Notes: generated by a model from the letters alone, not told the origin. A DNA stretch of 64,000 bases from Nannocystis bainbridge (GCF_028368995.1 NZ_JAQNDL010000004.1:128001-192000), one strand, 5' to 3'; shown: positions 4,961 through 62,484, numbered from the stretch's first letter. Numbers and translations are program-made.

Positions 4961-5040
4961 TTCGGGACATGTCGTGGAGGACATGTCCTGAGGGCGAGGT
5001 GCTCGAGGACATGTCGCAGCGGACATGTCCTGAGGGACAG
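4961..5040. repeat. GGACATGTCC 14-bp-period tandem array (5 units) between convergent gene ends
   Basis: ggacatgtcgtgga|ggacatgtcctgag|(degenerate)|ggacatgtcgcagc|ggacatgtcctgag|ggacag; ACATGT cores at 4966, 4980, 5008 and 5022, i.e. multiples of 14. Confidence 0.85.
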
Positions 5041-8975: not shown

Positions 8976-9070
8976 GCTGTCCCTCGTGGCATGTCCGTGG
9001 GGGCATGTCCAAAGGGGCATGGGTTAAACGACATGTCGCCAGGGACAGGGCCCCGGCGACATGTCGTGGA
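8976..9070. repeat. GGCATGTCC/GACATGTCG tandem array (about 6 units) between convergent genes
   Basis: ccctcgtggcatgtccgtgggggcatgtccaaaggggcatgggttaaacgacatgtcgccagggacagggccccggcgacatgtcgtgg. Confidence 0.85.
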
Positions 9071-9092
9071 GAGCAGCCTGGCGGCCGCGCGG

Positions 9093-10762: not shown

Positions 10763-10773
10763 TGCGTGCTTTG

Positions 10774-10803
10774 AGGGACATGTCCCGGGGGGCATGTCCC
10801 TCG
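10774..10803. repeat. GGACATGTCC repeat pair between convergent genes
   Basis: gagggacatgtcccggggggcatgtccctc. Confidence 0.8.
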
Positions 10804-10829
10804 ATGCAGGCGCGCGCGGGCGCGGTGGA

Positions 10830-15772: not shown

Positions 15773-15900
15773 GTGTCCTCGCGGACATGTCCGGAGGGGC
15801 ATGTTTGCGGGGGCATGTTCGTTCGGGCATGTCTGTTCGGGCATGTCCGTGCGAGCATGTGAGACCACGCGCCGATCGGCTATGCTCGCGGGCATGTTCG
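15773..15900. repeat. GGCATGT(C/T) tandem array (about 7 units) between pmbA and the acetyltransferase
   Basis: gcggacatgtccggaggggcatgtttgcgggggcatgttcgttcgggcatgtctgttcgggcatgtccgtgcgagcatgtgagacc ... gggcatgttcgtg. Confidence 0.85.
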
Positions 15901-16129: not shown

Positions 16130-16756
16130 ATGCAAAATTACTTCGAGAGCCCGTTCAAGGGCCGACTGCTGGCGGAGCAGGTCACCAACCGCAACATCGT
16201 CGTCGGCCGCTTCAGCTACTACTCGGGGTATTACCACGGGCACTCGTTCGACGACTGCGCGCGGTTTTTGATGCCGGACCGCGACGACGTCGACAAGTTG
16301 ATCGTCGGCAGCTTCTGCTCGATCGGCAGCGGCGCGGCCTTCATCATGGCGGGCAACCAGGGCCACCGCAGCGACTGGGTGTCGACGTTCCCGTTCCACT
16401 ACATGCCCGAGGTCGCGGCCTTCGCCGGGGCCCGCGACGGGTTCCGCGGCGCCGGTGACACGGTGATCGGCAGCGACGTGTGGATCGGGTCCGAGGCGAT
16501 GATCATGCCGGGGGTCCGGGTCGGGCACGGGGCGGTGATCGGCAGCCGGGCCCTGGTGGCCAAGGACGTCGAGCCGTACACGATCGTCGGCGGCAACCCG
16601 GCCCGGCCGATCCGCAAGCGCTTCGCCGACGAGCAGATCGCCATGCTGCTCGAGATGGCGTGGTGGGACTGGCCGCTCGAGCGGCTCCACGAGGCGATGC
16701 CGCTGCTGTGCGACGGCGACATCGCGGCGCTGTATCGGTTCTGGAAGGCCGCGTGA
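16130..16756 (+). CDS. Vat-family xenobiotic/streptogramin-A O-acetyltransferase (hexapeptide repeat)
   Basis: [31 protein letters not shown]... is the classic Vat/CatB N-terminus. Left-handed beta-helix repeats ([27 protein letters not shown]) and the C-terminal WDWP motif are present. Confidence 0.8.
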
Positions 16757-16763
16757 GCGCGGC

Positions 16764-17165
16764 TCAGTCGCGGTGGGGCAGGACGACGCGGATCCGCAGG
16801 GCGCCCTCGTCGTCGCGCCGCAGCGCGTAGGTCGAGCGCTCGAGGCCGACCTCGCGGCCGTCCTTGTCGACGAAGGGCCAGCACACGCGCACCAGCACGA
16901 CGCGGTCGCCGACCCACTCGCGCGACTCGACCTCGGGGCGCGTCATCGTCACCCCGCGGTCGAGGTACTGCGCCCGCGCGGCCGCGAAGAAGCGCTCGAT
17001 CTCCTCGCGCCGGGCCACCGCCTGCGCCCCGGAGTCGGCCAGCACGAAGGCCGGCGTCTCGTACAGCGTCGCCACCGTGAGGGCGTCGCCTTCCACCAGC
17101 GCCCGCCCGAGGAGGTTCAGGAACGCGTCGACCTCGCGGTCTCGCTCGGGGTTCGTCGTGGTCAT
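16764..17165 (-). CDS. SnoaL/NTF2-like small protein
   Basis: 133-aa ORF from ATG 17165 (MTTTNPERDREVDAFLN...) with an alpha+beta cone pattern; convergent with the acetyltransferase. Confidence 0.5.
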   Translation of the reverse strand: MTTTNPERDREVDAFLNLLGRALVEGDALTVATLYETPAFVLADSGAQAVARREEIERFFAAARAQYLDRGVTMTRPEVESREWVGDRVVLVRVCWPFVDKDGREVGLERSTYALRRDDEGALRIRVVLPHRD

Positions 17166-17340
17166 GATCGAGGCATTGAGGGTGCTCCTGGACGGGGCAA
17201 GCTCGGGCGGGCCTGCGCGGGCGGCAGGGCGGCTATATTGCCGCGGAGCGCGGTTCTGGGGGGCCGAGCGCAAGGGGCGCGGGGCGGACCAGCGCGCCGC
17301 GAGCGAGGTCGTCGGGGCGCGCGGCCGGGGTCGCTGCGGG

Positions 17341-17460
17341 GGGCGTGTCCGCGAGGACATGAGGGGGAGGTGCGAAAGGACATGTCGTGGTGGACATGTC
17401 GTGATAGACATGTCGTGATGAACATGCCTGATAGGGCATGTCTGAGAAGACGTTCTCGTG
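17341..17460. repeat. GGACATGTCG tandem array (about 7 units, 14-bp period)
   Basis: aggacatgaggggg|aggtgcgaa|aggacatgtcgtggt|ggacatgtcgtgat|agacatgtcgtgat|gaacatgcctgat|agggcatgtctgag. Confidence 0.85.
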
Positions 17461-17475
17461 ACGATGCGTTCTGCG

Positions 17476-17800
17476 GCCGGGGGCGGGCGGCTTCACGGCT
17501 CGCCGAGACCGAGCCTGGCGGATTCTTCCGGGCAGGCGAAGCGGCGAAGGGGACGGCTTCACGACTCTCGGGGCCGGGCCTGGCTGAATCTTCGGCAGCT
17601 GAAGCGGGCGAAGCGGGCGGCTTCACGGCTCGGCGCCGGGCCTGGCGGGTTCGTCGGGCACGCGAAGCGGCTGACTTCACGGCTCGGTGGGGCCGGGCCT
17701 GGCGTTCTACGGCCGGGCGGAGCGGGCGACTTCACGGCTCGGCGGGGCTGGTCCTTGCGGGTTCGTCCGGGCAGGCGAAGCGGGCGAAGCGGCGGGTGAG
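17476..17800. repeat. degenerate 58-66 bp tandem direct repeat, 5 copies, spanning the 3' end of the sigma/anti-sigma gene and its downstream region
   Basis: Units begin cttcacggctcgg(c/t)g...ggccgggcctggcg...gcgaagcgggcga at about 17478, 17541, 17607, 17664 and 17722. Confidence 0.65.
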
Positions 17801-19033
17801 CACCGAGTCGGGCAGGCGGGCGGTCAGGCGGGCGGCGGCGGCGGCGGCGTCGGCCGGGCGGCCTTGCAGGCACAGCAGCTCGATCGCGGCGGCCTCGCGG
17901 GCGTCGACGAGGGCGCCGCGCGGGAACTCGCGGGCGTGGCTGTCGAGCAGCAGGGCGGCGGCGGTCGGGTCGCGGGCGTCGAGGCGAGCGCGGGCGCGGT
18001 CGAGCAGGCCGACCTCGCGGGCGAGGTCGTCGCGGGCCCGCGCGCGGGCGGCTGGCCCGGGGGACAGGTCGGATCCCGTGGCTGTCCCTGCGGACAGGTC
18101 TCGCGCGGCTGTCTCTGCGGACAGGTCTCGCGCGGCTATCTCTGCGGACAGGTTCGACGCTGCTGTCTCTTCGGACAGGTCGGAGGGCGCAGGGTCCTTC
18201 GCGGCGGGCTCGTGGGCACGGTCCTTCGCGTCTGTCTCGTGGGACAGGTCCGAGCGCGCCGGGGCGCCGCGGCCGGGGGCCTGGCGCGGGGCGGCGACGA
18301 CGACCGCGGCGGTCCCGGCGACCAGGAGGGTCGTCATCACCCCGGTGCGGGCGGCGGTCCAGGCGGCGGCGACGGTGGCGAGCTTGCCGTGGCCGAACAG
18401 CGGGACGATCGCGGCCCAGTTGCGCGGGGCGGCCTCGGGCGGGGGCTCGGCGCGGCGGCGGTCGGCGGCGATCTCGGCGACCAGCGGCTCGGGGCCGGCG
18501 GCCAGCTCGAGCAGGCGGGCGCGGGCCAGGCGGAGCCGCGAGTAGACGGTGTTGAGCGGCAGCTCGAGCTCGGCGGCGATCTCGGGGCCGTTCATGCCGA
18601 GCAGCTCGGTCATCTCCCACACCTCGCGGGCGCCGCGGGGCAGGCCGGCGAGCAGGCGCTCGACCTGGCGGGCGGCGTCGTGGCGCTCGTGCGGGGCCTC
18701 GCCGACGTGGCCGGTGAGGTCGCCGAGAGCGGCGATCCGGCGGGTGCGGCGGGCGACGCCGCGGTGCCAGTGCGAGGCGACGCGGCGGGTGACGCCGTAC
18801 AGCCAGGCGCGCGCGGACACCTGGTAGTGGACCTGCTCGAAGCGGCGGTAGGCGGTGAGGAAGACGTCCTGGATCACGTCGTCGCGGGCGGCCGCCGGGA
18901 CGCCGAAGTAGCGGGCGGCGGACCAGACGAAGTTGAACTCGCGGTCGTAGATGGCGCGGAAGCGCGCTTCGCGGTCGGTGGCGAGCAGCATGGGGCCGGA
19001 GGTGGTGTCCCCGGTCGAGATGGATTCCGTCAT
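17732..19033 (-). CDS. ECF sigma factor fused to a C-terminal TM segment and an anti-sigma-like periplasmic domain with 9-aa tandem repeats
   Basis: Sigma-70 region 2 (FRAIYDREFNFVWSAARYFG...DDVIQDVFLTAYRRF) and region 4 (EVWEMTELLGMNGPEIAAELELPLNTVYSRLRLAR), then TM TTLLVAGTAAVVVAAP, then (DLSAETAAR)n encoded by 27-bp repeats at 18050-18250, then a helical C-domain. Start ATG 19031-19033 with GGAGA 9 nt upstream. The Arg/Pro-rich N-terminal extension in the ORF track was rejected. Confidence 0.7.
   Translation of the reverse strand: MTESISTGDTTSGPMLLATDREARFRAIYDREFNFVWSAARYFGVPAAARDDVIQDVFLTAYRRFEQVHYQVSARAWLYGVTRRVASHWHRGVARRTRRIAALGDLTGHVGEAPHERHDAARQVERLLAGLPRGAREVWEMTELLGMNGPEIAAELELPLNTVYSRLRLARARLLELAAGPEPLVAEIAADRRRAEPPPEAAPRNWAAIVPLFGHGKLATVAAAWTAARTGVMTTLLVAGTAAVVVAAPRQAPGRGAPARSDLSHETDAKDRAHEPAAKDPAPSDLSEETAASNLSAEIAARDLSAETAARDLSAGTATGSDLSPGPAARARARDDLAREVGLLDRARARLDARDPTAAALLLDSHAREFPRGALVDAREAAAIELLCLQGRPADAAAAAARLTARLPDSVLTRRFARFACPDEPARTSPAEP
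18050..18250. repeat. 27-bp coding tandem repeat (ctgcggacaggtctcgcgcggctgtct)n inside the sigma/anti-sigma CDS; a CATG-less variant of the GGACATGTCC family
   Basis: About 6 copies, each holding GGACAGGTC and its inverted partner GCTGTC. It translates on the minus strand to S/DLSAETAAR repeats. Confidence 0.75.
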
Positions 19034-20106
19034 CGCGGGTCTCCGAGGTGCAATTCGAGGCCGAGGAGCAGGCGCAGGCTGACCGGGGCGCTGTTGAAGA
19101 GGCCGACCGGCTCGACCGGGTCGGCGAGGTCGAAGCGGGGCGAGGTCAGGCGGACGAGGCCCTGGGCGGCGAGCAGGAGGCCGAGGCGGGGGTGAAAGCG
19201 CCAGGTGGCGCCGGCGGACACGAGCGCGGCCGCCCACAGGCCGGTGGCGGCGCGGGCGCCAGGGCCACGGCCCTCGCCGCGCAGGCCGCCGAGCTCGAGG
19301 CCGCCGCACAGCGGGAACTCGAAATCGCCGCGAAACAGGCGCGCGCAGCCGCGGACGCCGCCGCCGAGCAGGTAGACGCGGACCGCGTGGGGCGGGCGCG
19401 ACTCGGTCTGGGGCACCAGGTGGAGGCCGTGGAACTCGAGGCGGGCCCGCCGCCACAGCACGCCGAGCGCGAGATCGACGGTCGCGGTGGGCGCCGGCAG
19501 GGTGCCGACCTCGAGGCCGCCGGCGAGGCGGAGCAGCATCCCGGGACCGCGCCGGCGCGGCGGTGAGGGCGGGGCCAGCGGGGCCTCGGCGGTGACGGCC
19601 GGGTCGGGCGGCGGCGGCGATGGGGCGGGCGCGGGCGGTTCGAGGCTGGCCTCGGGGCGTGGTGCGAGATCGGGCGCCGGGTCGATCGCGGCGTCGCCAG
19701 GTACCGGGTCGGGCGCGAGCTCGCCGGCTTCGGGCGCTTCGAGGTCGACCGGTTCGCCGCGGGCGGCGACCGTGGGGTCGAGCGCGAGGGCGGCCAGCAG
19801 CGCCGCGGCGTCGACAAGGGCGTCGCAGCGGCGGGCGCCGAGGCGGCGGGCCTGCGTGTGGCCGGCGACGGTGAGGCGCAGGTCGAGGCGGAAATGGGTC
19901 GCGCCGGACCGCTCGACGCGGCCGTCCAGCGCGAGCTCGTCGGGGCCCGGGTCGCGGCCGAGGCGGCGGGCGATCGCCGTGGCGAGCGCGTCCCGGTCGG
20001 GGCAGCCCGCCGGGGCCTGCCACACGGCCGCGGACGCGGACGGGGGCGGGGGCACCTGGAGCGCGAGCGCTGCGGCGAGGAGCGCGGACGGCATCGACGG
20101 CTGCAT
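19030..20106 (-). CDS. hypothetical secreted protein translationally coupled (ATGA overlap) to the downstream ECF sigma gene
   Basis: Signal-like MQPSMPSALLAAALALQ and a Pro/Ala-rich middle. The C-terminal half has alternating hydrophobic pattern suggestive of beta-strands. The stop TGA overlaps the sigma ATG. Confidence 0.45.
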   Translation of the reverse strand: MQPSMPSALLAAALALQVPPPPSASAAVWQAPAGCPDRDALATAIARRLGRDPGPDELALDGRVERSGATHFRLDLRLTVAGHTQARRLGARRCDALVDAAALLAALALDPTVAARGEPVDLEAPEAGELAPDPVPGDAAIDPAPDLAPRPEASLEPPAPAPSPPPPDPAVTAEAPLAPPSPPRRRGPGMLLRLAGGLEVGTLPAPTATVDLALGVLWRRARLEFHGLHLVPQTESRPPHAVRVYLLGGGVRGCARLFRGDFEFPLCGGLELGGLRGEGRGPGARAATGLWAAALVSAGATWRFHPRLGLLLAAQGLVRLTSPRFDLADPVEPVGLFNSAPVSLRLLLGLELHLGDPR

Positions 20107-20212
20107 CCTAGCGCAGGAGGTGTCGGCCGGCTCCGGACCGATCGCGTCGCGCGGCGTGCGCTCGGCGAGAGGGCGCGCGGGCTCGACCGGGCGGCCGATG
20201 AGCATGACCGAA

Positions 20213-20326
20213 CGGACATGTCTCGAAGGACGTGTCCGATCGGTCATGCTCGATCGCGGGGTCGCATGTCCTCGGGGACAGGCGCCCCGCGATTCCGAGG
20301 ATCGCTCGCATGTCCTCAGGGACAGG
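20213..20326. repeat. GGACATGTC/GCATGTCC tandem array downstream of the peroxidase gene
   Basis: cggacatgtctcgaaggacgtgtccgatcggtcatgctcgatcgcggggtcgcatgtcctcggggacaggcgccccgcgattccgaggatcgctcgcatgtcctcagggacagg. Confidence 0.85.
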
Positions 20327-20359
20327 CGGAGTCAGAACCGCGCGGCGCGGCAGGCCCTG

Positions 20360-22969
20360 TCACGGCTTGGGCAGGTCGTTGCCCTCGAGGTTGAGGAAGG
20401 TGCGGATCGGCTTGTTGCTGCCGCCAGCGCCGACCGCGGGGATCTCGAGTCCGTCCTTGATCGGGTCGTCGTCGGCGCGGCCGTCGGCGGGGGCGACGTC
20501 GACGACCTTGTCGAGGCCGTTGGGGACGAACAGCTGCGGGTGGTCGAAGGGGGCCCGCTGGAAGACGACGTCGGGGTCGGTGAGCGACTGCAGGAACAGC
20601 ACCAGGTCGGCGCGCTGCTGGGCGTTCAGCTCGAGGCGGGTGATGTCCGGGTCGAGCTCGCGGTTGCGGTGGAAATCACCGCCGCGGTTGTAGAACTCGA
20701 CCACCTGCTCGAGGGTCGACATGCCGCCGTTGTGCATGTACGGGGCCGTGAGCTGGGAGTTGCGCAGGGTCGGGACCTTGAAGGCGCCGTTGACGGCGGT
20801 GCGCAGGTTCTTGATGAAGCGCTCGTTGGCCTTGTTGTCCTTCGGCTCGCCGGTCGCGGTCTTGAGCTTGCCGTCGCATTTGGTCTTGTCCCTGAACCCG
20901 CCGGGGAACAGCGGGCCGTCGACGACGACGCTCCACGGGACGTCGAAGGTGCACGGGTCGACCTCGAACGGGTCGCGCACGTCCTTGCCGAGCAGCATCT
21001 GCACGTACTGCTCGGTGAACGACAGCGGGTTGCCGAACGGGTCCTCGCCGCCGACGCCGATGTCCTCGGCGGTCGGCCGCACGCCGATGTTGTAGAAGCC
21101 GTTGTCGTAGAGGGCCGGCTCGCGCAGGTCGAGCAGGCTGCTGGGGCCGTAGCCGACGAACTCGAGCTCGCCGCCGCCGTCCTGCACGAGCACGAAGTCG
21201 AGGAACTCGCCCTCGACCTTGAAGTCGTCGCGCAGGAAGATCCGCAGCTTGGACGGGCAGCCGCTGCCGCTCTTGCGCTCGGCGTCGATCCGGATGTCGC
21301 GCGAGGGCGAGTCGTCTACGCCGAAGGTCATGGACTCGGGGTCGTAGACGCAGCTGTCGTCGTCGTCGACCTTGCTGAGGACGATCTGGCCGATGGCGGC
21401 GCCGGGCACGATCTTGTCGCCCTTGGCGGTCGGCGTGGCCTCGACGTCGAGCGAGAGGGTCCGCTCGCCCTTGCCCTTCTTCCACAGGGTGAACGGGCGC
21501 ACCTTGAACGGCGGGTCGGTGCGGACGCCGTAGTTCTGGTCCTCCTCGGTCATGAGCATGCGCTCGACCAGGCCCTCCTCCTCGAACTCGTCGATGAGGT
21601 GCAGCGTGGAGGCGCTGGTGAACATGGCGGTCTTGTGGCAGTTGACGCACTTGCCCTGGTTCAGGAAGATGTCGAGCCCGGCCAGCTGGTGCTTGCCGAG
21701 CGCGTTCTTGTCGCGGCCGTCGCGGAAGCGGTCGAACGGGGTGTTGGCGGACACGAGGGTGCGCTCGTAGGCCTGGATGGCGAGGCCCCAGAACAGGCTG
21801 AAGTTGGTCTCCATCAGGGTGAAGCGCTGATCGGCGGGGACCTTGTTGGGGTCGGCGAGCACGTTCTTGTCGGCGTCGAAGTAGAGGTCGGACTTCCACA
21901 GCTTGGCGGCGAAGGCGGCCTCGATCATCTTGGCGTAGGTGGTCTCCAGGCCCTTGTTCGGGGCGGCCAGCGGGCCGAGCACCGAGTCGTCGGGCAGGAC
22001 CTTCTGGAACCCGAGCGGGATGGTGGGCGCGCGCACCAGCTTGCGGCCGACGTCGGTCAGGGTCCGGCCCTGGCACGAGGCCTCGAACGGGCTGACCACC
22101 GGGCCGGTGGCCTGCGAGGCGAGCGAGCCGTTGACGATCTCGAGCTTGCGCTTGACCGGCTTGTTGCCCTTGACCTCGAGGATGAAGGCGTCCTTGTTGC
22201 GGCGGCCGAACGGGTCGACGCCGTTGAACCAGCGATTGGCCCGACCGTCCCAGAAGTTGCGGAAGTTGAAGGCGGCGTTGATCACGGTCGGGGCGTTGCG
22301 CGGCTCGACGCGGCGCACGTTGATGCCGTCGACCTGGAACGGCGGGTCCGGCACGGTCTCGCACTTGTCGTTGATGAAGCCGGGCTTGACGGCGATGAAG
22401 TCGGCCCGCCGCACGCCCTGCGAGGAGGTGACGTCGTCGCTGTCGAACAGCACCTTCGAGTTGCGATCCTCGGGGTCCTTGAGGACGTGGAAGGGATAGT
22501 CGGCGGCGACGAGCTGGAGGTTCGGCCCCTTGCCGCCGGTCCGGGTCTTGTCGAACTTGCCGTTGCCGCCGAGCAGGCCCGGACTCAGCTGATTGCGCGA
22601 GCGGTTGTCGGCGCCGGCCGAGAAGTGACAGCTGGCACAGGCCTGACCGTCGCTGCCGCTCTGCATGTCCCAAAAGAGGGCCTTGCCGAGCGCGATCGCG
22701 GCGTCGTTGTCGACGATGAGGTCCGGCTCGATATCCTTGCCGGTGATCCGGTCGAACAGCGGCGGGAGCTTCTCCAGGGCCAGAGAGCCGGGGATGTCGT
22801 GCTTCTCCTCCTCGACGCCGCTCGGCGGCGGGACGACGCCAGGGTCCGAATCTCCGCCCCAGATGAACTCATAGTCACATCCGGCCGCCGACAGGACACC
22901 GAGCCCTATGCCCATGCCCGCGAGCGTGGCGAACCATTCACAAAGGCGATTGTGCATGGCCTGGTTCAT
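20360..22969 (-). CDS. large di-haem cytochrome c peroxidase/MauG-family lipoprotein
   Basis: Two CxxCH haem motifs (CASCHF, CVNCHK), lipobox LSAAGC, and a conserved CCP C-terminal block (PTLRNSQLTAPYMHNGGMSTLEQVVEFYNRGG). Confidence 0.8.
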   Translation of the reverse strand: MNQAMHNRLCEWFATLAGMGIGLGVLSAAGCDYEFIWGGDSDPGVVPPPSGVEEEKHDIPGSLALEKLPPLFDRITGKDIEPDLIVDNDAAIALGKALFWDMQSGSDGQACASCHFSAGADNRSRNQLSPGLLGGNGKFDKTRTGGKGPNLQLVAADYPFHVLKDPEDRNSKVLFDSDDVTSSQGVRRADFIAVKPGFINDKCETVPDPPFQVDGINVRRVEPRNAPTVINAAFNFRNFWDGRANRWFNGVDPFGRRNKDAFILEVKGNKPVKRKLEIVNGSLASQATGPVVSPFEASCQGRTLTDVGRKLVRAPTIPLGFQKVLPDDSVLGPLAAPNKGLETTYAKMIEAAFAAKLWKSDLYFDADKNVLADPNKVPADQRFTLMETNFSLFWGLAIQAYERTLVSANTPFDRFRDGRDKNALGKHQLAGLDIFLNQGKCVNCHKTAMFTSASTLHLIDEFEEEGLVERMLMTEEDQNYGVRTDPPFKVRPFTLWKKGKGERTLSLDVEATPTAKGDKIVPGAAIGQIVLSKVDDDDSCVYDPESMTFGVDDSPSRDIRIDAERKSGSGCPSKLRIFLRDDFKVEGEFLDFVLVQDGGGELEFVGYGPSSLLDLREPALYDNGFYNIGVRPTAEDIGVGGEDPFGNPLSFTEQYVQMLLGKDVRDPFEVDPCTFDVPWSVVVDGPLFPGGFRDKTKCDGKLKTATGEPKDNKANERFIKNLRTAVNGAFKVPTLRNSQLTAPYMHNGGMSTLEQVVEFYNRGGDFHRNRELDPDITRLELNAQQRADLVLFLQSLTDPDVVFQRAPFDHPQLFVPNGLDKVVDVAPADGRADDDPIKDGLEIPAVGAGGSNKPIRTFLNLEGNDLPKP

Positions 22970-28432: not shown

Positions 28433-28500
28433 GGGACATGTCGTGGCGGGCATGTCCGATGCGGCATGTTCGAGTGGACATGTTCGATGGGACATGGCCT
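28433..28500. repeat. GGACATGT(C/T) tandem array (5 units) abutting the left inverted-repeat arm
   Basis: gggacatgtcgtggcgggcatgtccgatgcggcatgttcgagtggacatgttcgatgggacatgg. Confidence 0.85.
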
Positions 28501-32006: not shown

Positions 32007-32070
32007 GTGTCCTCGAGGACATGTCTCCGGGAGCATGTCCTCGAACCCATGTCCCCGGGGACATGCCCCG
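32007..32070. repeat. GGACATGTC tandem array (about 5 units) between pcm and nadE
   Basis: tcgaggacatgtctccgggagcatgtcctcgaacccatgtccccggggacatgccccgggggcc. Confidence 0.85.
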
Positions 32071-35023: not shown

Positions 35024-35027
<4 letters not shown>

Positions 35028-36892
35028 GCGGGGGAGGAAGAGTACCCCTCGGCGAGCGCGTTGGCGACCTCGGTATAGGCGTAATCGCTGACGCGTTCGT
35101 CGATGCGCATGCGCAGCAGCGCCTTGCTGCGGCAGGCGGCGGCGAAGAAGAACGCGCGATCGTCGGCGCAGGCGCGCGCGAGCGCGGGGACGGCGGCCCA
35201 GCGATCGAACAGGCGCTGGCAGATCCGCCGCACGCACGGCCACAGCTCGGCCTGGTCGGGCCCGCCGGCGTCTTCGATCCAGGCGATGACGGCGGCGAGG
35301 TGGGCGTGCACGAGGGTGTGGAGCAGCTTGCCCTGGGCCTCGGCGAGGTCGGCGGTGAGGGTGAAGGAGTCGGAGGCGAGCGCGGGTGCGTGACCGGCGG
35401 CGGCGAGCCGGCCGCGGTGGAGCCGGATGCCGCCGAGGTCGCGCACGATGAAGCCGCAGGGGCGGCCGGCGTGGACGAGCAGGGTGTTCTGCAGGTGGGC
35501 CTCGAGGGCGACGCCGTGGGCGGTCAAGAGGCGCAGGGCCGGCGGGACGAGGACTTCGAGGTAGTCGCTGAAGAAAGCGGCGAGGCGGGCGCGCAGGTCG
35601 CCGGGGTAGTCGGCGGCGAGCTCGCGCACGAGGAGGTCGCCGCCGGGGCGGCGCTCGCCGAGCGCGGCGCAGACGAGGAGCTGCGGGCTGCGCGAGGGGA
35701 CATGTCCGTGAGGGAAGGTCCTCGGGGACATGTCGTCGGGGGCATGTCCGGAGGGGAATGTCTCAAGGGACATGTCGGCGGGGCGGGACGGAGCGAGGCG
35801 CGGGTCGGCTGTCGCGAGGGACAGGTCGGCGTGGAGGTCGCGGGCGAGGGCGGCGGGGTCGGGGCGCAGCACGACGCCGAGCTGGCCGGCGCGGTCGCCG
35901 TGGCGCGGGTGCATGCCGGCGGCGGCCACGTCGGCCTGGATCCGCAGGCCGCGGCGCGTCTCGGGATCGGCGGCCTGGATCGCGGCCAGCAGGGCGGCGA
36001 TCGGCGGGCCGTTGTGGACCGAGGCGGGCGAGACCTGGCGGCGCGCGCTGGTGGTGTGGATGTCGACGGCGAGCTTGAGGTGCAGGGCCGGGGCGGCGAG
36101 GGCGACGGTGCGCAGGCTCAGGAGGGCGCGGGCGGGCAGCGGGGGCAGGTCGACGGGGTGGGCGACGCTGCGCCACAGCGGGCCGAGCAGGCGCGGCAGG
36201 CGGCGCAGCTGGAGGGCGTGCACGGGCAGGCGGACCAGGCCGGCGGGCGCGGGCGGGAACAGCTCGCGGGCGAGGTCGGCGTAGAGGTCGGGCGCGGCGA
36301 GCTGGGCGTGGTCGGCGGCGAGGTCGACGGCGTGCACGGGGGCCTGGGCCAGCAAGTCGGGGCCGTGGCGCAGGTTCTCCCAGGCGCGCAGGCCGAGCCG
36401 GGTCTTGCTCATCGGGTGCCAGGGGTGACCGTCGACGACGAGGTTCTCGGGGTCGAGCGGGGCGGGCCACGCCTGGCCTTCGGAGCATGTCCGATGGCGC
36501 AGGTCGGCGACGAGGCGGGCGAGGGCGAGGTTCCAGCGGCTGTCGTCGAGCTCGCGGGCGAGCCGGGCGCGGGGGGCCGGGGCGAGCGCGGGTAAGAGGC
36601 GCGGGAGGAGCTGGGGGAGGTCGGGCAGGTCGCTGGCTTCGAGGTCGGGGGCGTGGAGCTCAAAGGCGCGGCGGCGTCGCAGCGGGAGACTCAAGGAACA
36701 TGTGCGAAGGGACATGTCCTGAAGGTCAAAGGCGAGGAGCCGCTCGCGGGCGCAGGCGAGGAGCAGGCGGGCGCCGATGGCCTGGGTGGCGGCGCGCCAG
36801 TGACAGGCGAGGTCGGCGGGCTCGGGCCGGACGCGGAAGGCGAGGGGGAGGGCCCGGGCGGCGAAGGCGAAGAAGCGGTCGCGCTCGGGCAC
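35024..36892 (-). CDS. IucA/IucC-family (NRPS-independent siderophore synthetase-like) protein with FhuF-like C-terminal domain; carries in-frame GGACATGTCC repeat insertions
   Basis: [28 protein letters not shown] (S-x-R-T/R ATP loop) and [10 protein letters not shown] (H-x-Q-N) resemble NIS-synthetase motifs. The repeat arrays at 35696-35830 and 36692-36725 lie inside the reading frame (peptides [27 protein letters not shown] and DMSLRTCS). The true start is uncertain. Confidence 0.45.
35696..35830. repeat. GGACATGTC tandem array (about 7 units) lying in-frame inside the IucA/IucC-like CDS
   Basis: gggacatgtccgtgagggaaggtcctcggggacatgtcgtcgggggcatgtccggaggggaatgtctcaagggacatgtcggcgggg...gggacaggtcggc. 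Confidence 0.85.
36692..36725. repeat. GAACATGTG/GGACATGTCC repeat pair within the 5' region of the same ORF
   Basis: aggaacatgtgcgaagggacatgtcctgaaggtc. Confidence 0.7.
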
Positions 36893-37048: not shown

Positions 37049-37756
37049 TCAGCCGGCGCGCCAGTGGGCCACGGCGAGCTCGCCGAGCATGAGGGTGGCG
37101 GACAGGAGGAGGACGGCGGCGATCCAGCGGCGCAGGCTGTCGGGGTCGAGGCTGCCGGTGCGGCGGGCGCCGAGGTTGGCGCCGAGCAGGGTGAGCGGGG
37201 TGACGATGGCGAAGGCGGTGAGGTCGACCTGTCCTTGGAGGAAGGTGGCGACGCCGGCCGACAGCCCGGTGACGGCGCCGATCGCCATGTTGGTGCCGAT
37301 GGCCACGGGCGGGGCGACGCGGGCGTAGCGGATCATGGCGGGCAGGCGCAGGCTGCCGAGCAGGAGGCCGACGAGGCCGGAGATCGCGCCGAGCACGGCG
37401 CCGACGACGACCTCGGCGAGGACGGCGAAGGTGCGCGAAGGGACATGTCCGGAAGGACTGGTCGGATCGGGCGGGCGGCGCAGCATGCTGGCGCCGGTGA
37501 GCAGGAGGACGCCGGCGATGACGGCCTTGAGCAGGCGCGCGTCGACGCTGCCGGCCCAGCGAGCGGTGGCGAAGGCGGCGAGGGCGGAGGGGAGGCCGAC
37601 GCTGGCGAGCAGCCACAGGTCGACGCGGCCGTCACGGGCGTGCCGCCAGGTGCCGGTGAGGGTGCCGGCGGTGGAGATGGCGAGGCTGGTGGCGGCGCCG
37701 GCGACCGGGCTGCCGAGGACGTAGACGAGGAGGGCGACCCGCAGCTGGCCGAGCAC
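37049..37756 (-). CDS. TauE/SafE-family sulfite/anion exporter membrane protein; GTG start as tracked, but a hydrophobic helix is encoded in-frame upstream without a canonical start
   Basis: Two 3-4 TM halves separated by a loop that contains an in-frame GGACATGTCC repeat (RRPPDPTSPSGHVPSRTF). Upstream in-frame codons encode EILALALIALVSFGLSYIGATVGLV after a TAG at about 37846. Confidence 0.65.
   Translation of the reverse strand: MLGQLRVALLVYVLGSPVAGAATSLAISTAGTLTGTWRHARDGRVDLWLLASVGLPSALAAFATARWAGSVDARLLKAVIAGVLLLTGASMLRRPPDPTSPSGHVPSRTFAVLAEVVVGAVLGAISGLVGLLLGSLRLPAMIRYARVAPPVAIGTNMAIGAVTGLSAGVATFLQGQVDLTAFAIVTPLTLLGANLGARRTGSLDPDSLRRWIAAVLLLSATLMLGELAVAHWRAG
37436..37465. repeat. GGACATGTCC repeat unit pair in-frame inside the TauE central loop
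   Basis: gcgaagggacatgtccggaaggactggtcg. Confidence 0.8.
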
Positions 37757-38430
37757 GAGCCCGACGGTGGCGCCGATGTAGCTGAGGCCGAAGGAGACCA
37801 GCGCAATGAGCGCTAGCGCGAGGATCTCGGTGGAGCGCAGGCGCCGACGCTAACACGCGTGACGGGGGAGTGAGCCTGGAGGGATCGCCGCGCGGTGGCG
37901 CGAGGGCGCGCGGTCGCGGAGGACCACGAGAGAGGTGGTGCGGGGGCGATGCGTGAGGGGGCCGCTGCGAGGGCTCGGTGATGCTCTCGCGCGGTGCTGT
38001 CTCGCGGATGCGGCGGCGATCGCAGGGGACGAGTCGACGGCGATGGCCGGGCAGTTCGAGGCAAAGTGGGTGGCACACGCGGCGCGGCGATGTTGGCGAG
38101 GGCCTCGCTGTCGCGGTGTCGATGGCCGCGTCGCGGATGTGGCGGGGATGGTGCTGGTGGCGGTCCGGCGAGTCGTGGCGATGCTGCCCTGCGTGTCGGA
38201 TGGTTTGCGAGGCGCGAGCGATCGCTTCGTCGGGCCTCGGGCGTGCGGGCTGTCGGAGGGCCGCGAGGATCGGCGGTGTGAACGTGAAGGTTCGTTCATC
38301 ACGGTGCGCTGGGTCGGACGGTGATGGTCGGCTCGAGTCGGCGAAGGTGTCGCGGGCGAAGGTGTCGCGGGCGAAAGGCGGGGCGGCGCTTGACAGGCGG
38401 GCGGGCCGGGGCGGACGCTGCGGCGGCGTG

Positions 38431-39216
38431 ATGGAGCGCGGGGACACGACGGCGGCGGAGGCGCTCGCAACGGGGCTTCCGGGGTCGCCGCGGCCGCGCT
38501 GGGTGGTGATTCACTGGACGCTCGAGGCGCTGGGGCTGGTGCGCGCGATCGCGGCGGCCGACGGCTCGCCGGAGCTGACGCTGATCGGGCCGGCGGCCGC
38601 GGACGAGGTCGCGGGGGCGCTGGCCGAATTGCCCGAAGGACATGTCCACAAGTACTGGCAGGGCTCGGCGAGCGGCGGGGTCGAGGCGCTGGCGCGCTTC
38701 TTCGCCGAGACGGCCGGGCTGCCGGCGGCCGACGCGATCATCGTGCTGCCGCTGCGCGGGCACGGCGAGACCGACGCGTTCTCGCGCCTGGTGTGCACGG
38801 CGATCCAGCGGGCCTGCAAGGGCAAGCCGCCGCACGTGGTGGTGGCGGTCGAGGACCCGGAGGCGACCCACGAGTTCGAGGGGCTCGGGGTGGCGACGAT
38901 CTTCTATCCGGGCTTCCTGCGCGCGGCGCTGCTGGCCCACGCGTGCGTCGATCTGGGGGCGTTCCGCTTCATGCTGGCGCTGCTCGGCGGGCGCCTGCGG
39001 GTCGAGACCTGGCCGGTGCCGCCGGAGCTGCGGGCGGGGACGTTCCGCGAGGCGTGCCTCGGGGTGGAGGTCGATCGCCGCGGGCGGCCGGTGACGCTGA
39101 TCGGGCTGTTCGCGCCGGCCGAGGGCGGGCAGGACTCGATGCTGCTGAGCCCGCCGCCGGGCCGTGCGCTGCGCGACGCGAGCGCGCTGCTGGTGCTGAC
39201 GGGAGAGGCCGAGTGA
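38431..39216 (+). CDS. stand-alone RCK (TrkA-N/TrkA-C-like) regulatory protein
   Basis: Rossmann-like alternation (RWVVIHWTLEALGLVRAIAA...DAIIVLPLRG...HVVVAVEDPEA) followed by a small beta domain. Sits immediately upstream of the channel gene. Weak SD. Confidence 0.4.
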   Translation: MERGDTTAAEALATGLPGSPRPRWVVIHWTLEALGLVRAIAAADGSPELTLIGPAAADEVAGALAELPEGHVHKYWQGSASGGVEALARFFAETAGLPAADAIIVLPLRGHGETDAFSRLVCTAIQRACKGKPPHVVVAVEDPEATHEFEGLGVATIFYPGFLRAALLAHACVDLGAFRFMLALLGGRLRVETWPVPPELRAGTFREACLGVEVDRRGRPVTLIGLFAPAEGGQDSMLLSPPPGRALRDASALLVLTGEAE

Positions 39217-47283: not shown

Positions 47284-47356
47284 GAGATGTCCCCGGGGAC
47301 AGATGATTCTGTCTCCGGGGACATGTCCTAACGTGGCTGTCCCGAGGGACAGGCCA
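47284..47356. repeat. GAGATGTCCCCGGGGACAG / GGACATGTCC array
   Basis: gagatgtccccggggacagatgattctgtctccggggacatgtcctaacgtggctgtcccgagggacaggcc; contains a near-perfect 12-bp inverted repeat ccggggacag...ctgtctccgggg. Confidence 0.85.
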
Positions 47357-52464: not shown

Positions 52465-52541
52465 CTGTCCGTTCGGGCATGCGCGAACAGACAGGTCCTC
52501 CGGGACATGCCCCATGCGGCATGTCCCCGGGGGCATGTCAG
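52465..52541. repeat. GGGCATGC/GGACATGCCC/GGCATGTCC tandem array between convergent genes
   Basis: ctgtccgttcgggcatgcgcgaacagacaggtcctccgggacatgccccatgcggcatgtccccgggggcatgtcag. Confidence 0.85.
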
Positions 52542-55751: not shown

Positions 55752-55808
55752 AGGGACATGTCCCCCGGGACCTGCCCTCAAGGGCATGGCTCCGGGGACA
55801 TGTCCGAT
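55752..55808. repeat. GGGACATGTCCCCCGGGAC / GGGGACATGTCC array overlapping the 3' end of the methyltransferase CDS
   Basis: agggacatgtcccccgggacctgccctcaagggcatggctccggggacatgtccgat. Confidence 0.85.
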
Positions 55809-62349: not shown

Positions 62350-62468
62350 GGCTTCGAGGATATGTCCCGAGGGACAGGTCATCGCAGGTCGATTGGCTTC
62401 AAGGTCATGCCCTGAGAGACATGTCCGTGCGGCGCGAATCGCGTAATGACATGTCTTGAGGGACATGT
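62350..62468. repeat. GATATGTCC/GGGACAGGTCA/GAGACATGTCC/TGACATGTCT/GGGACATGTCC array (about 6 units) between the SDR and the propeller lipoprotein genes
   Basis: gatatgtcccgagggacaggtcatcgcaggtcgattggcttcaaggtcatgccctgagagacatgtccgtgcggcgcgaatcgcgtaatgacatgtcttgagggacatgtccttcag. Confidence 0.85.
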
Positions 62469-62484
62469 CCTTCAGGGCTAGCCG

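Follow-up and report, generated by a model that had tools for sequence, protein, structure and literature searches.

A putative two-gene envelope-signalling module in Nannocystis bainbridge with a repeat-bearing tether between an ECF sigma factor and its periplasmic domain

Genes and protein domains at the locus

The window analysed here, a 64,000-nucleotide stretch of N. bainbridge DNA, carries on its minus strand a gene at 17732..19033 (ATG at 19033, stop codon TGA at 17732-17734) encoding a protein of 433 aa. The product is 100% identical to P0001, annotated as 'RNA polymerase sigma factor [Nannocystis bainbridge]', and the GC content at the three codon positions was 0.78/0.59/0.94, the GC3 value of 0.94 supporting the coding frame. 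The parts follow one another in the order sigma-2/sigma-4, two short helices, a transmembrane (TM) helix, a disordered linker of about 80 aa and a TPR-like C-terminal domain of about 90 aa. The single frame that the sequence-only reading had traced from the sigma regions through the membrane to the periplasmic part was confirmed as one ORF. The full architecture is common to more than 100 Myxococcota homologues, and conservation of the fusion was seen in 167 homologues of 355-500 aa. That the long ORF is a frameshift or assembly artefact merging a sigma and an anti-sigma gene, or a decaying pseudogene, is scarcely credible: the C-domain of one orthologue (N. pusilla Na p29; L004/P0014) does contain a frameshift and split versions occur in other lineages, but over 100 independent genomes and metagenomes have an unbroken fused ORF, with several paralogues in each genome, GC3 is 0.95-0.98 in both halves in one frame, and the juxtamembrane segment is conserved across the family.

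The sigma part was assigned from two Pfam matches, both above their gathering scores: Sigma-70 region 2 (Sigma70_r2, PF04542; aa 29-95, 18749..18949, minus strand, E=6e-07) and region 4_2 (Sigma70_r4_2, PF08281; aa 122-174, 18512..18670, minus strand, E=2e-10). The ECF model TIGR02937 matched aa 26-176 (E=1.8e-16, 60.2 bits against a cut-off of 42.9), and Foldseek matched this part to ECF sigma structures such as SigL, SigE and CnrH (E~1e-6). With sigma-2 and sigma-4 present and neither sigma-3 nor sigma-1, it is an ECF (group 4) sigma factor. The AF2 model places two juxtamembrane helices after sigma-4 (aa 181-195 and 201-213; 18395..18493, minus strand; pLDDT 81-85), in which R204 is invariant family-wide and R192, W206 and P211 are nearly so (102-sequence alignment A2). 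A single TM helix follows at aa ~218-248 (18290..18382, minus strand), deduced from hydropathy and from an AF2 helix at 218-246; the Kyte-Doolittle peak was 1.89 at aa 230-248, and the family median is 2.0. Only about 40 aa, those of the two helices (181-213), separate sigma-4 from the membrane, and no Pfam or NCBIfam match to an anti-sigma domain (ZAS, RskA, FecR-N etc.) was obtained there, the sigma domains being the sole matches. Since no recognisable anti-sigma domain precedes the TM helix, the covalent tether may not inhibit the sigma factor in the classical manner. The juxtamembrane helices are possibly a minimal sigma-binding segment, and a minimal anti-sigma domain of the CnrY/NepR kind may lie within them.

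The C-terminal TPR-like domain (aa 327-421; 17771..18055, minus strand) was modelled by AF2 as four to five antiparallel helices (pLDDT 93-98 for aa 327-415), in agreement with the helical domain proposed for this end of the protein. It contains a conserved cysteine pair, C388/C421, which is probably a disulfide. The TPR_14 model scored 15.3 bits on the window's own copy, below the cut-off of 23.5, and reached E<=1 in 26 of 28 family members (best 3.5e-07). The family profile matched a BamD chain at E=0.009; BamD/YfiO matches were weak. Taken together, the data support a covalent connection, made by one TM helix, between an ECF sigma factor and a helical domain outside the cytoplasm.

The gene upstream (19030..20094, minus strand; 354 aa) is annotated as P0121. 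An alternative ATG at 20106 falls within a conserved TAGGAT −10-like motif (TGCGCTAGGATG; 20104..20115, minus strand) that lies 10-20 nt before the MP... start of this gene in six Nannocystis species, and the start at 20094 is the more likely one. Its product starts with a signal-like N-terminus, continues with an alpha/beta domain (aa 23-111) and a disordered linker rich in Pro, and ends in an outer-membrane barrel of eight antiparallel strands, of the type found in OmpA-N, OmpX, OmpW and NspA. It models as an eight-stranded outer-membrane barrel with a periplasmic N-domain; the typical aromatic C-terminal beta-signal is absent from the window's protein and its signal peptide is weak. The gene overlaps the fusion gene by an ATGA start/stop (19030..19033, minus strand; GTGA in orthologues), as the sequence-only reading had noted. 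In tblastn searches with the upstream protein, the matches in L001-L004 and L006 stopped where the sigma gene begins, and the two genes were always syntenic. The sequence comparisons support translational coupling of the upstream gene to the sigma fusion and universal synteny of the two. The gene at +1 of the fusion encodes a soluble NTF2-like protein.

Split relatives and comparable sigma factors

When the C-domain alone was used as the query, 3134 library proteins were retrieved, mostly of 220-280 aa with the domain at the C terminus. In all five stand-alone C-domain proteins inspected, the domain is preceded by a cytoplasmic segment at the N terminus, a TM helix and a linker rich in P/A/S. 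The genes of three of them (P0350, P0314 and P0288; 3/3 checked) each lie directly after an ECF sigma gene with a 4-nt overlap, the neighbouring sigma factor being complete for P0350 and P0314 (182-189 aa) and truncated at the contig edge for P0288. In the two long contigs the sigma gene is preceded by a gene for a protein of 334 or 367 aa, neither having a Pfam match. The split relatives therefore consist of a separate ECF sigma factor of 182-189 aa followed by a single-pass protein of about 250 aa with the same C-domain. The L051 sigma factor is 33% identical to the sigma domain of the fusion, and the P0314 C-domain is 41% identical to its C-domain. By these comparisons, homology of the extension to free-standing anti-sigma-type proteins encoded beside ECF sigma factors is supported. 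Because the stand-alone C-domain proteins follow ECF sigma genes, the proposal of a sigma factor fused to its own anti-sigma factor gains comparative backing; the relationship stands through the shared C-domain, although a recognisable anti-sigma domain could not be matched.

Instead of an inhibitory remnant, the extension could be a required positive module or a localisation anchor from which no proteolytic release takes place, the sigma factor being active while tethered (as in ToxR or CadC) or needing its extension (as in ECF41 and ECF42). This would fit the missing anti-sigma domain and the short distance of ~40 aa between sigma-4 and the membrane, and ECF groups with C-terminal extensions do use several mechanisms (PMC8999054, PMC7826278). 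It was nevertheless judged unlikely. In the split relatives the protein with the TM helix and C-domain occupies the canonical anti-sigma position with a 4-nt overlap, a sigma factor has to associate with core RNA polymerase on DNA, something that a permanent ~40-aa link to the membrane would make difficult, and it is Prc/RseP proteolysis that activates the characterised hybrid IutY (PMC8999054).

IutY of Pseudomonas putida, a sigma/anti-sigma hybrid of ECF243 that acts in cell-surface signalling, offers the best functional analogy for the fusion; Prc/RseP-type proteolysis activates it and the truncated sigma factor is constitutively active (PMC8999054). In both, one polypeptide begins with an ECF sigma factor, crosses the membrane once and ends in a periplasmic part; IutY acts together with a protein of the outer membrane, as the fusion presumably does. 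IutY, however, has a FecR-type anti-sigma part and a TonB-dependent transducer as its partner, whereas the fusion has a periplasmic TPR-like module of ~90 aa, no FecR or other recognisable anti-sigma domain, and a small eight-stranded barrel as its presumed partner. The fusion is a hybrid in that a single chain holds the sigma factor, the TM helix and the extracytoplasmic domain, and no recognisable anti-sigma domain lies between sigma-4 and the TM helix. The actinobacterial groups ECF48, ECF52 (e.g., SCO4117) and ECF53 have fused extensions containing TM segments, for which proteolysis has been proposed (PMC8999054). As in the fusion, the sigma factor is followed by one or more TM helices, a Pro-rich linker outside the cytoplasm and, at the C terminus, a sensory domain, but these groups belong to another phylum and carry a zinc-finger (ZAS) anti-sigma domain, which the fusion lacks, and carbohydrate-binding or other domains. 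Pairs of the RpoE-RseA type have the layout of the split relatives (ECF sigma factor, single-pass protein of ~250 aa, 4-nt gene overlap); the window differs in encoding one polypeptide, with a cytoplasmic anti-sigma part of ~40 aa instead of ~70-90 aa.

Within the existing classification, the most plausible bin is ECF220, compared here by its group description. This group, from the then-Proteobacteria, is described with a C-terminal extension and transmembrane proteins at −1 and +1 (PMC7826278 Table 2, Casas-Pastor et al. 2021; PMC8999054 Table 2) and includes a myxobacterial example, WP_061622786.1 of Sorangium cellulosum (PMC7826278). The locus has the extension, and its −1 gene encodes an outer-membrane barrel protein; the soluble +1 product is at odds with the description.

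The linker repeats and the dispersed palindromic element

The periplasmic tether (aa 249-326; 18056..18289, minus strand) bears repeat units and is predicted to be disordered (pLDDT ~40); its GC3 is 0.80, compared to 0.95-0.98 across the remaining gene. A tandem array of 3.8 copies of a 27-bp unit at 18080-18181 (minus strand; TRF score 160, 89% matches) encodes (D/N)LS(A/E)E(T/I)AA(R/S), and a second, more degenerate array of 2.3 copies (DLSHETDAKDRAHEPAAKDPAPS) lies at 18189-18251 (minus strand; TRF score 82), with one element core at 18242-18250. Six xLS motifs were read in the linker (DLSHETDAK, DLSEETAAS, NLSAEIAAR, DLSAETAAR, DLSAGTATG and DLSPGPAAR), matching the five to six nonapeptide copies that had been proposed to arise from 27-bp units.

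The same window contains a dispersed element with the core GGACATGTCC, found in arrays of 14-bp period. Its palindrome, GGACATGTC, occurs 38 times against 0.47 expected, and about 25 clusters lie between predicted genes. Two canonical intergenic arrays, neither assigned a strand, flank the operon, one downstream at 17342..17442 (14-bp period, GGACATGTCGTGAT x4.6) and one upstream at 20205..20324; orthologous loci carry arrays at the corresponding place. The 27-bp unit at 18080-18181 corresponds approximately to one 14-nt and one 13-nt copy of the element (GACCTGTCCGCAGA|GACAGCCGCGCGA). The sequence GGACAGGTC is present five times in 18062-18250 and nine times in the entire window (0.73 expected). 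A two-unit pattern built from intergenic copies, GRCATGTCSNNNNRGRCA, gave 78 matches in the window against 0.38 expected, four of them in the linker (at 18083, 18110, 18164 and 18233, one mismatch each); the coding units are duplicated in tandem and shared among orthologues, so these matches are not independent events. In strain RBIL2 the linker has a 36-bp unit with five exact matches to the pattern.

The codons of the motif are nearly fixed as GAC-(A/C)TG-TCC-NNN-GAG-ACA across six species. The rare Thr codon ACA was used in 19 of 21 motifs, compared to 0.5% of Thr codons in other genes, and TCC in 17 of 21, compared to 14% of Ser codons elsewhere. A paralogue linker (P0051 of N. punicea) has the canonical GGACATGTCCAAAAGGACATCC, encoding KDMSKRTS. 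The element was also found in frame in two unrelated genes of the window, IucA/IucC (between two Pfam domains) and TauE (in the central loop). The length of the IucA insert differs from one Nannocystis orthologue to another, and the Plesiocystis, Enhygromyxa and Nannocystaceae-MAG orthologues inspected lack it. Translation of the element in all three frames gives DMS / ET / GHVP with a 14-aa period, and the IucA/IucC insert yields the same peptide as one of the three frames of a canonical 14-bp array. The proposed relationship between the coding repeat and the family of intergenic palindromes is well borne out: the two-unit pattern, the rare codons and the in-frame copies in a paralogue and in unrelated genes support derivation of the DLSAETAAR units from the dispersed GGACATGTCC repeat. 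Since the rare codons are retained and the element gives other peptides in other frames, conservation at the DNA level, rather than selection as a peptide, is likewise supported by the sequences.

A function-selected peptide module, such as a protease-recognition site or a ligand- or peptidoglycan-binding unit resembling the palindrome by coincidence, is very improbable. In its favour, the motif [DGN][LM]S.ET[AS] occurs in every Nannocystis orthologue. Selection on the peptide would, however, not keep codons nearly fixed on rare ones, the region is predicted to be disordered with copy number and spacing unconstrained, and the IucA/IucC insert shows the peptide to be one reading of the array. 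Nor was the peptide conserved in distant homologues: neither element nor motif was found in the sigma-fusion homologues outside Nannocystis, whose linkers are plain and Pro/Ala-rich.

The intragenic copies might alternatively be retained as DNA or RNA sites, with the peptide as a side-effect, either for a protein recognising the intergenic arrays or for pausing or processing between the sigma/TM and sensor parts. The retention of ACA and TCC in six species despite 3-26% protein divergence outside the linker would be expected of such sites, as would the near-canonical element in the P0051 linker and the arrays at conserved positions either side of the operon. RNA folding of the array was no better than that of shuffles (z=−1.41), no terminator-like sites were found, and copy number, spacing and sequence drift freely among orthologues, with many copies decayed. 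Similar inserts in unrelated genes are always in loops or linkers, as expected of tolerated selfish DNA, and a role as nucleic acid sites is considered rather improbable.

The linkers of the orthologues measure between 61 and 168 aa and hold two to eight motifs, while the folded domains are constant. Repeat copy number thus varies between close relatives as anticipated: outside the linker P0006 and P0007 share 96.8% identity, but their linkers measure 168 and 136 aa with eight and six motifs, respectively. The view that the repeats set the length of the sensor domain needs amendment, as the varying repeats sit in the disordered tether and the sensor domain itself is length-invariant. At 27 and 36 bp, both linker units are divisible by 3 and so fall outside the usual definition of phase variation; slippage alters length only and cannot switch the gene on or off.

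Five direct tandem copies of 55-66 bp lie at the 3' end of the gene and beyond it (17491..17797, minus strand; TRF scores 194-195, 72-76% matches). Copy 1 (17730-17797) comprises the last ~20 codons and the stop codon of the fusion gene (RFARFACPDEPARTSPAEP*), and copies 2 to 5 (17675-17729, 17621-17674, 17557-17620 and 17491-17556) are non-coding duplicates; no codon-position GC asymmetry was observed at 17443-17731. The array is absent downstream of five orthologues (L001-L005), and the rest of the window and the other loci examined yielded no further copies. The repeats that had been reported here are thus present, but they are unrelated to the palindrome family and duplicate the gene's own 3' end. 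They form a species-specific, non-coding tandem duplication that is probably neutral.

Proposed mechanism and significance

We observed directly how the fusion protein is built, that this layout is conserved, that split relatives exist and that the two genes are syntenic. On this basis we propose with a probability of roughly 0.6 that the locus is a two-gene envelope-signalling module in which signalling proceeds as outlined below, the repeats have colonised a tether and the downstream array is neutral. The first gene would supply an outer-membrane eight-stranded barrel whose periplasmic N-terminal domain is carried on a Pro-rich tether. The second would supply an ECF sigma factor fused to the counterpart of a single-pass anti-sigma-type protein that related genomes encode separately. 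The tether to the membrane, alone or together with the two juxtamembrane helices, would hold the sigma factor inactive; the TPR domain would sense a periplasmic event, possibly via the outer-membrane partner, and regulated proteolysis would then free the sigma factor, as for the IutY hybrid. The DLSAETAAR repeats would be in-frame copies of a genus-specific palindromic repeat and not a designed peptide module. Copies of the element presumably colonised the tolerant disordered tether in a Nannocystis ancestor and later expanded and contracted, giving the present unit of 27 bp (14+13) in N. bainbridge and 36 bp in strain RBIL2. Such expansion and contraction would produce tethers of 61-168 aa without altering the folded domains.

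The closest precedent for the element is found in the Rickettsia palindromic elements (RPEs), which are palindromic and mostly intergenic and also occur in frame in unrelated genes (Ogata et al. 2000, 2002, reviewed in PMC10969869); other MITE or REP insertions within genes are comparable. The Nannocystis element is similarly a high-copy, dispersed palindrome, mainly intergenic, that forms in-frame peptide inserts at tolerated positions of unrelated intact genes and is polymorphic in presence or copy number. RPEs differ in being ~150 bp long with one conserved peptide each, whereas the Nannocystis unit is 14 bp, forms short tandem arrays and is read in three frames; its copies in the sigma linker were, in addition, secondarily re-amplified as 27- or 36-bp units. 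Reading the sequences revealed no terminal inverted repeats, target-site duplications or cognate transposase such as RAYT.

A broader suggestion, which we regard as tentative and on balance doubtful, is that palindromic repeats of 14-bp period routinely become coding linker material throughout the genus and thereby tune the length of the sigma tether. If so, reading in three frames would yield disordered inserts of the 'DMSxETFPSGHxP' type, and the element would be a second clear case after the RPEs, mechanistically distinct from them. The number of units would then tune a periplasm-spanning tether, altering the reach of the inner-membrane sensor to its outer-membrane partner, and selfish DNA would supply an evolvable signalling geometry.

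Anatomy of the sigma fusion

The sigma fusion is encoded on the minus strand, starting at ATG 19033 and ending at TGA 17732-17734 (433 aa), and its product was 100% identical in the protein search to P0001, a Nannocystis bainbridge protein annotated "RNA polymerase sigma factor." The G+C content of the window is 72%. Within the gene, the values at codon positions 1, 2, and 3 were 0.78, 0.59, and 0.94, respectively, supporting the frame throughout, and the frame was therefore deduced to be real rather than a long high-GC ORF artefact. Pfam placed Sigma70_r2 at aa 29-95 and Sigma70_r4_2 at aa 122-174; the TIGR02937 (ECF) score was over the cut-off, and the protein was classed as an ECF sigma factor. 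The hydropathy maximum (1.89) fell at aa 230-248. The AlphaFold2 model, built from 102 homologues with a mean pLDDT of 77.8, resolved sigma-2 (aa 15-107), sigma-4 (aa 114-179), two juxtamembrane helices (aa 181-195 and 201-213, pLDDT 81-85), the TM helix (aa 218-246), a disordered region (aa 247-326, pLDDT ~40), and a C-domain of 4-5 tightly packed helices (aa 327-415, pLDDT 93-98). The sequence-only reading of a single frame passing from sigma regions 2 and 4 through a TM helix into a periplasmic segment is in agreement with Pfam, TIGR02937, hydropathy, and AlphaFold alike. Each feature named in that reading was recovered, and its interpretation proved largely right apart from the position of the repeats, the nature of the downstream array, and the lack of a recognizable anti-sigma domain.

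In Foldseek, the N-terminal half matched ECF sigma structures. The whole model returned sigma matches only, and the C-domain was therefore characterized by profiles. No family was over threshold for this domain, and TPR_14 was matched at E<=1 in 26 of 28 family members, some of which matched TPR_6 or YfiO. The family profile also gave a weak match to BamD. The cysteines C388 and C421 of the C-domain are nearly invariant, which fits a periplasmic domain that may hold a disulfide. In Pfam, no anti-sigma domain family matched the ~40-residue stretch that links sigma-4 to the membrane.

Fused and split forms of the module

The protein search found 167 homologues of the fusion, all of 355-500 aa and nearly all spanning both halves, in Nannocystis, other Nannocystaceae, and Myxococcota MAGs. 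Since homologues are this numerous and several paralogues occur per genome, the fusion was judged to be an established family and no local accident. One orthologue, P0014 from Nannocystis pusilla Na p29 (L004:5001-6407), is frameshifted in the C-terminal domain and reads thereafter as Arg/Pro-rich nonsense up to a late stop, representing either a pseudogene or a sequencing error.

A search with the C-domain only, over 1.84 billion representatives, gave 3134 proteins, most of them of 220-280 aa with the domain at the C terminus. In the five stand-alone proteins inspected, the domain follows a cytoplasmic N terminus of ~70-90 aa, one TM helix, and a linker rich in Pro, Ala, and Ser. For the split single-pass proteins P0350, P0314, and P0288, which carry the same C-domain, the gene was located directly 3' of an ECF sigma gene in all three cases looked up, the two genes overlapping by 4 nt; the sigma was complete (182-189 aa) for the first two and truncated at the contig end for P0288. 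On both long contigs, the split sigma was itself preceded by a protein of 334 or 367 aa without a Pfam family. One split-relative sigma was 33% identical to the sigma domain in the window, and one split-relative C-domain was 41% identical. Because the split relatives share this order, the fused pair (354-aa protein, then sigma-TM-C-domain) was deduced to be the counterpart of the triplet consisting of a ~335-367-aa protein, an ECF sigma, and a single-pass C-domain protein.

By tblastn, the 354-aa protein likewise immediately precedes the sigma gene in every orthologous locus, in paralogous loci, and in distant homologues, the matches stopping at the sigma start with a GTGA or ATGA overlap. The coupling by ATGA expected from the first reading was seen at 19030-19033, where the fusion's start codon and the stop codon of the upstream ORF overlap. 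Pfam, NCBIfam, and PDB sequence searches gave no sequence family for the upstream protein. Its barrel was recognized by fold search only. Barrel matches dominated both fold searches, so that neither assigned a fold to the N-terminal domain.

The start of the upstream gene is likely ATG 20094 (354 aa, as annotated), and an alternative ATG at 20106 falls within the motif TGCGCTAGGATG. This motif, with a -10-like TAGGAT, lies at 20104-20115 on the minus strand and is kept in six Nannocystis species, 10-20 nt before the start codon, pointing to a promoter whose leader is very short. An ECF-type -35/-10 motif was not apparent near it, and 16700-20500 yielded no terminator-like or sigma-70 promoter-like sites. 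Rfam gave no family at threshold and one subthreshold chance match, and the tRNA search was negative. The gene immediately 5' of the module (20360-22969, minus strand) codes for an 869-aa di-haem cytochrome c peroxidase/MauG-like protein that includes a RoxA-like segment. It is syntenic in three of the five orthologous loci (L001, L003, and L004) and could be functionally linked or a mere neighbor. Downstream of the fusion lies the gene for a 134-aa NTF2-like protein with a weak DUF6841 match (16764-17168, minus strand); it is kept close by in each of the five orthologous loci, four of which have it on the same strand.

The sequence-only reading held that the sigma is joined to its own anti-sigma-like domain. 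The split relatives with matching gene order provide good comparative support for fusion to an anti-sigma-type partner, but no recognizable anti-sigma domain was found, and the cytoplasmic half of the partner is reduced to two short helices, a caveat on the anti-sigma reading. A serious rival is that the sigma is tethered yet active, or dependent on its extension, as is seen in other extension-bearing ECF groups. Analogy to the split relatives and to the characterized sigma/anti-sigma hybrid IutY (PMC8999054) led to a proposed mechanism of tethering, sensing, and proteolysis. The sigma would be held at the inner membrane, possibly aided by the two conserved juxtamembrane helices, and the periplasmic TPR-like domain would sense a signal, plausibly via the periplasmic N-domain of the cotranslated outer-membrane barrel protein. 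Both partners have long flexible tethers, as would be expected for a meeting across the periplasm. Sequential proteolysis would then free the sigma. In this working mode, the fusion is likened to IutY and the ECF48/52/53 hybrids but differs in lacking a recognizable anti-sigma domain, which is their defining feature. The architecture is presented as one of a kind already known. The most plausible existing bin would be ECF220, for which the listed example is from Sorangium, with a C-terminal extension and TM proteins at -1 and +1 (PMC7826278).

Repeats in the tether, in other genes, and downstream

The dispersed palindrome described from the sequence is genuine: the window holds 38 copies of GGACATGTC (0.47 expected) and 9 of the variant GGACAGGTC (0.73 expected), five of the nine inside the linker. 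Intergenic arrays have a 14-bp period (GGACATGTCC NNNN GGACATGTCC..., with the palindromic core GGACATGTCC) and occupy about half of the intergenic regions of the window. Examples are at 4965-5039, 8988-9075, 10767-10808, 15774-15857, 17342-17442, 20205-20324, 28435-28494, 32008-32067, 47284-47355, 52490-52539, 55755-55804, and 62359-62479. Neighboring units are mutually complementary, so hairpins with 9-bp stems are possible. The element was found in other Nannocystis loci and was essentially absent from loci outside the genus, and a literature search of limited coverage gave no description of the family.

In the fusion gene, TRF detected a 27-bp unit in 3.8 copies (18080-18181, 89% matches) and, at 18189-18251, a weaker array of 2.3 copies of 27 bp; together they encode six xLS motifs. 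The coding repeats are thus present as first described, except that they had been placed in the sensor domain and are located instead in the tether between the TM helix and the C-domain. Motif count and linker length both vary among relatives. Over 14 orthologues, the linker is hypervariable (61-168 aa) and the remainder of the protein is 69-98% identical. The orthologues P0006 and P0007, 96.8% identical outside the linker, have linkers of 168 and 136 aa with 8 and 6 motifs, respectively. The motif [DGN][LM]S.ET[AS] is present in every orthologue in differing numbers and spacings, and strain RBIL2 has a 36-bp unit in 5.6 copies encoding (G/D)MSRETASLPPA. Fusion homologues from outside Nannocystis have plain Pro-rich linkers in loci without the element.

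Conservation of the motif lies at the DNA level. Its codons are almost always GAC-(A/C)TG-TCC-NNN-GAG-ACA: ACA accounts for 19 of 21 motif Thr codons, compared to 0.5% of Thr codons in 15 confident window genes, and TCC for 17 of 21 motif Ser codons, compared to 14% elsewhere. GC3 is 0.80 in the linker and 0.95-0.98 across the rest of the gene. A two-unit pattern built from intergenic copies only, GRCATGTCSNNNNRGRCA, had 78 matches in the window at <=1 mismatch (0.38 expected), four of them in the coding linker, and exactly matched five RBIL2 coding units. The coding-unit spacing agrees (GACCTGTCCGCAGA|GACAGCCGCGCGA, 14 + 13 = 27 nt), as does the consensus alignment of intergenic GGACATGTCCc..gGGACATG with coding GACCTGTCCCgaGAGACAGCC. 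Together with in-frame copies elsewhere, the pattern matches, rare codons, and spacing led to the conclusion that the suggested kinship with the intergenic family is correct, the element having entered the tether in the Nannocystis ancestor and its copies having then been reamplified locally.

The linker repeats most likely act only as a tolerated spacer. A phase-variation on/off switch was ruled out because the 27- and 36-bp units are multiples of 3 and keep the frame. Folding of the coding-array RNA was no better than that of shuffles (z = -1.41).

In a paralogous fusion of N. punicea, the orthologue of the N. bainbridge paralogue P0050, a canonical GGACATGTCC-AAAA-GGACATCC encodes the linker peptide KDMSKRTS. 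An in-frame array was also found at ~35689-35826 (minus strand), where it separates the IucA_IucC domain from the FhuF domain in a siderophore synthetase gene at ~35024-36748. GC3 of this insert is 0.77, compared to ~1.0 in the flanking coding sequence of the same frame. Its length varies in Nannocystis orthologues, and it is absent from the orthologues examined from Plesiocystis, Enhygromyxa, and one Nannocystaceae MAG. Successive units read DMS, then ET, then GH(V/A)P. A 14-bp unit is not divisible into whole codons, which produces the three-frame reading, and the recurrence of "DMSxET" follows from successive units being read in turn with a 14-aa period.

A second copy in the N-terminal region of this gene (36701-36728, minus strand) is kept in the annotated N termini of Nannocystis orthologues; more distant orthologues have a degenerate copy or none. 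The IucA/IucC protein had no 100% database match; the best was 84%, so the protein database may lack an annotation for it or treat it as a pseudogene. A single unit at 37432-37459 (minus strand), translated as PSGHVPSRT, lies in the central loop of the TauE/SafE gene (37049-37849), which encodes a sulfite-exporter-family membrane protein, and GC3 dips locally to 0.80 there. An exact GGACATGTCC at 38638-38647, translated as PEGHVHKY within a long plus-strand ORF of high GC3, is possibly another in-frame copy. A permissive scan with one unit for more such copies yielded mostly chance GMS/DMA matches and was excluded from the evidence.

The five further direct repeats noted at the 3' end of the gene were present at 17491-17797 by TRF and repeat alignment, with units of 55-66 bp, but they are copies of the gene's own 3' end and not kin of the palindrome. 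Copy 1 (17730-17797) comprises, in the coding orientation, the last ~20 codons and the stop, RFARFACPDEPARTSPAEP*, its 5' part being homologous to the conserved RRFERFVCPD end of orthologues. In copies 2-5 (17491-17729), this segment recurs, GCCGTGAAG and its TGA included, and the copies were considered noncoding because codon-position G+C asymmetry is absent. The array was absent 3' of all five orthologues, and the unit was not found in the rest of the window or in 48 fetched loci; a dispersed family was ruled out, the unit being local only. Because copy 1 is the gene end and the array is absent from these sequences, it was concluded to represent a species-specific tandem duplication, perhaps seeded by the 9-bp direct repeat CGCTTCGCC. 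RNA folding was no better than that of shuffles (z = +0.54), and no inverted repeats of >=14 nt were found in 17300-18400. The array is unrelated to the palindrome family, and no evidence of function was seen.

Implications

The occurrence of fused and split forms in matching gene order constitutes comparative evidence for the origin of one-component ECF sigma factors from sigma/anti-sigma pairs. It also defines a Myxococcota trans-envelope module, uncharacterized before, made up of a small outer-membrane barrel and a membrane-tethered sigma with a TPR-like sensor. The tether provides a non-Rickettsia case of an abundant intergenic repeat recruited into coding DNA, with rare codons and a local GC3 dip as its signature and a hypervariable tether as its outcome. 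The Nannocystis element resembles the Rickettsia palindromic elements (PMC10969869) in repeat behavior and differs in unit size, three-frame reading, and secondary tandem amplification; the repeat-built hypervariable tether is a new form of a known phenomenon. For annotation, there is a risk that element inserts are mistaken for functional peptide repeats or that genes carrying them are called pseudogenes. The repeat-built tether is informative for the evolution of disordered linkers, and if tether length affects signaling, the repeats would be a natural tuning knob.
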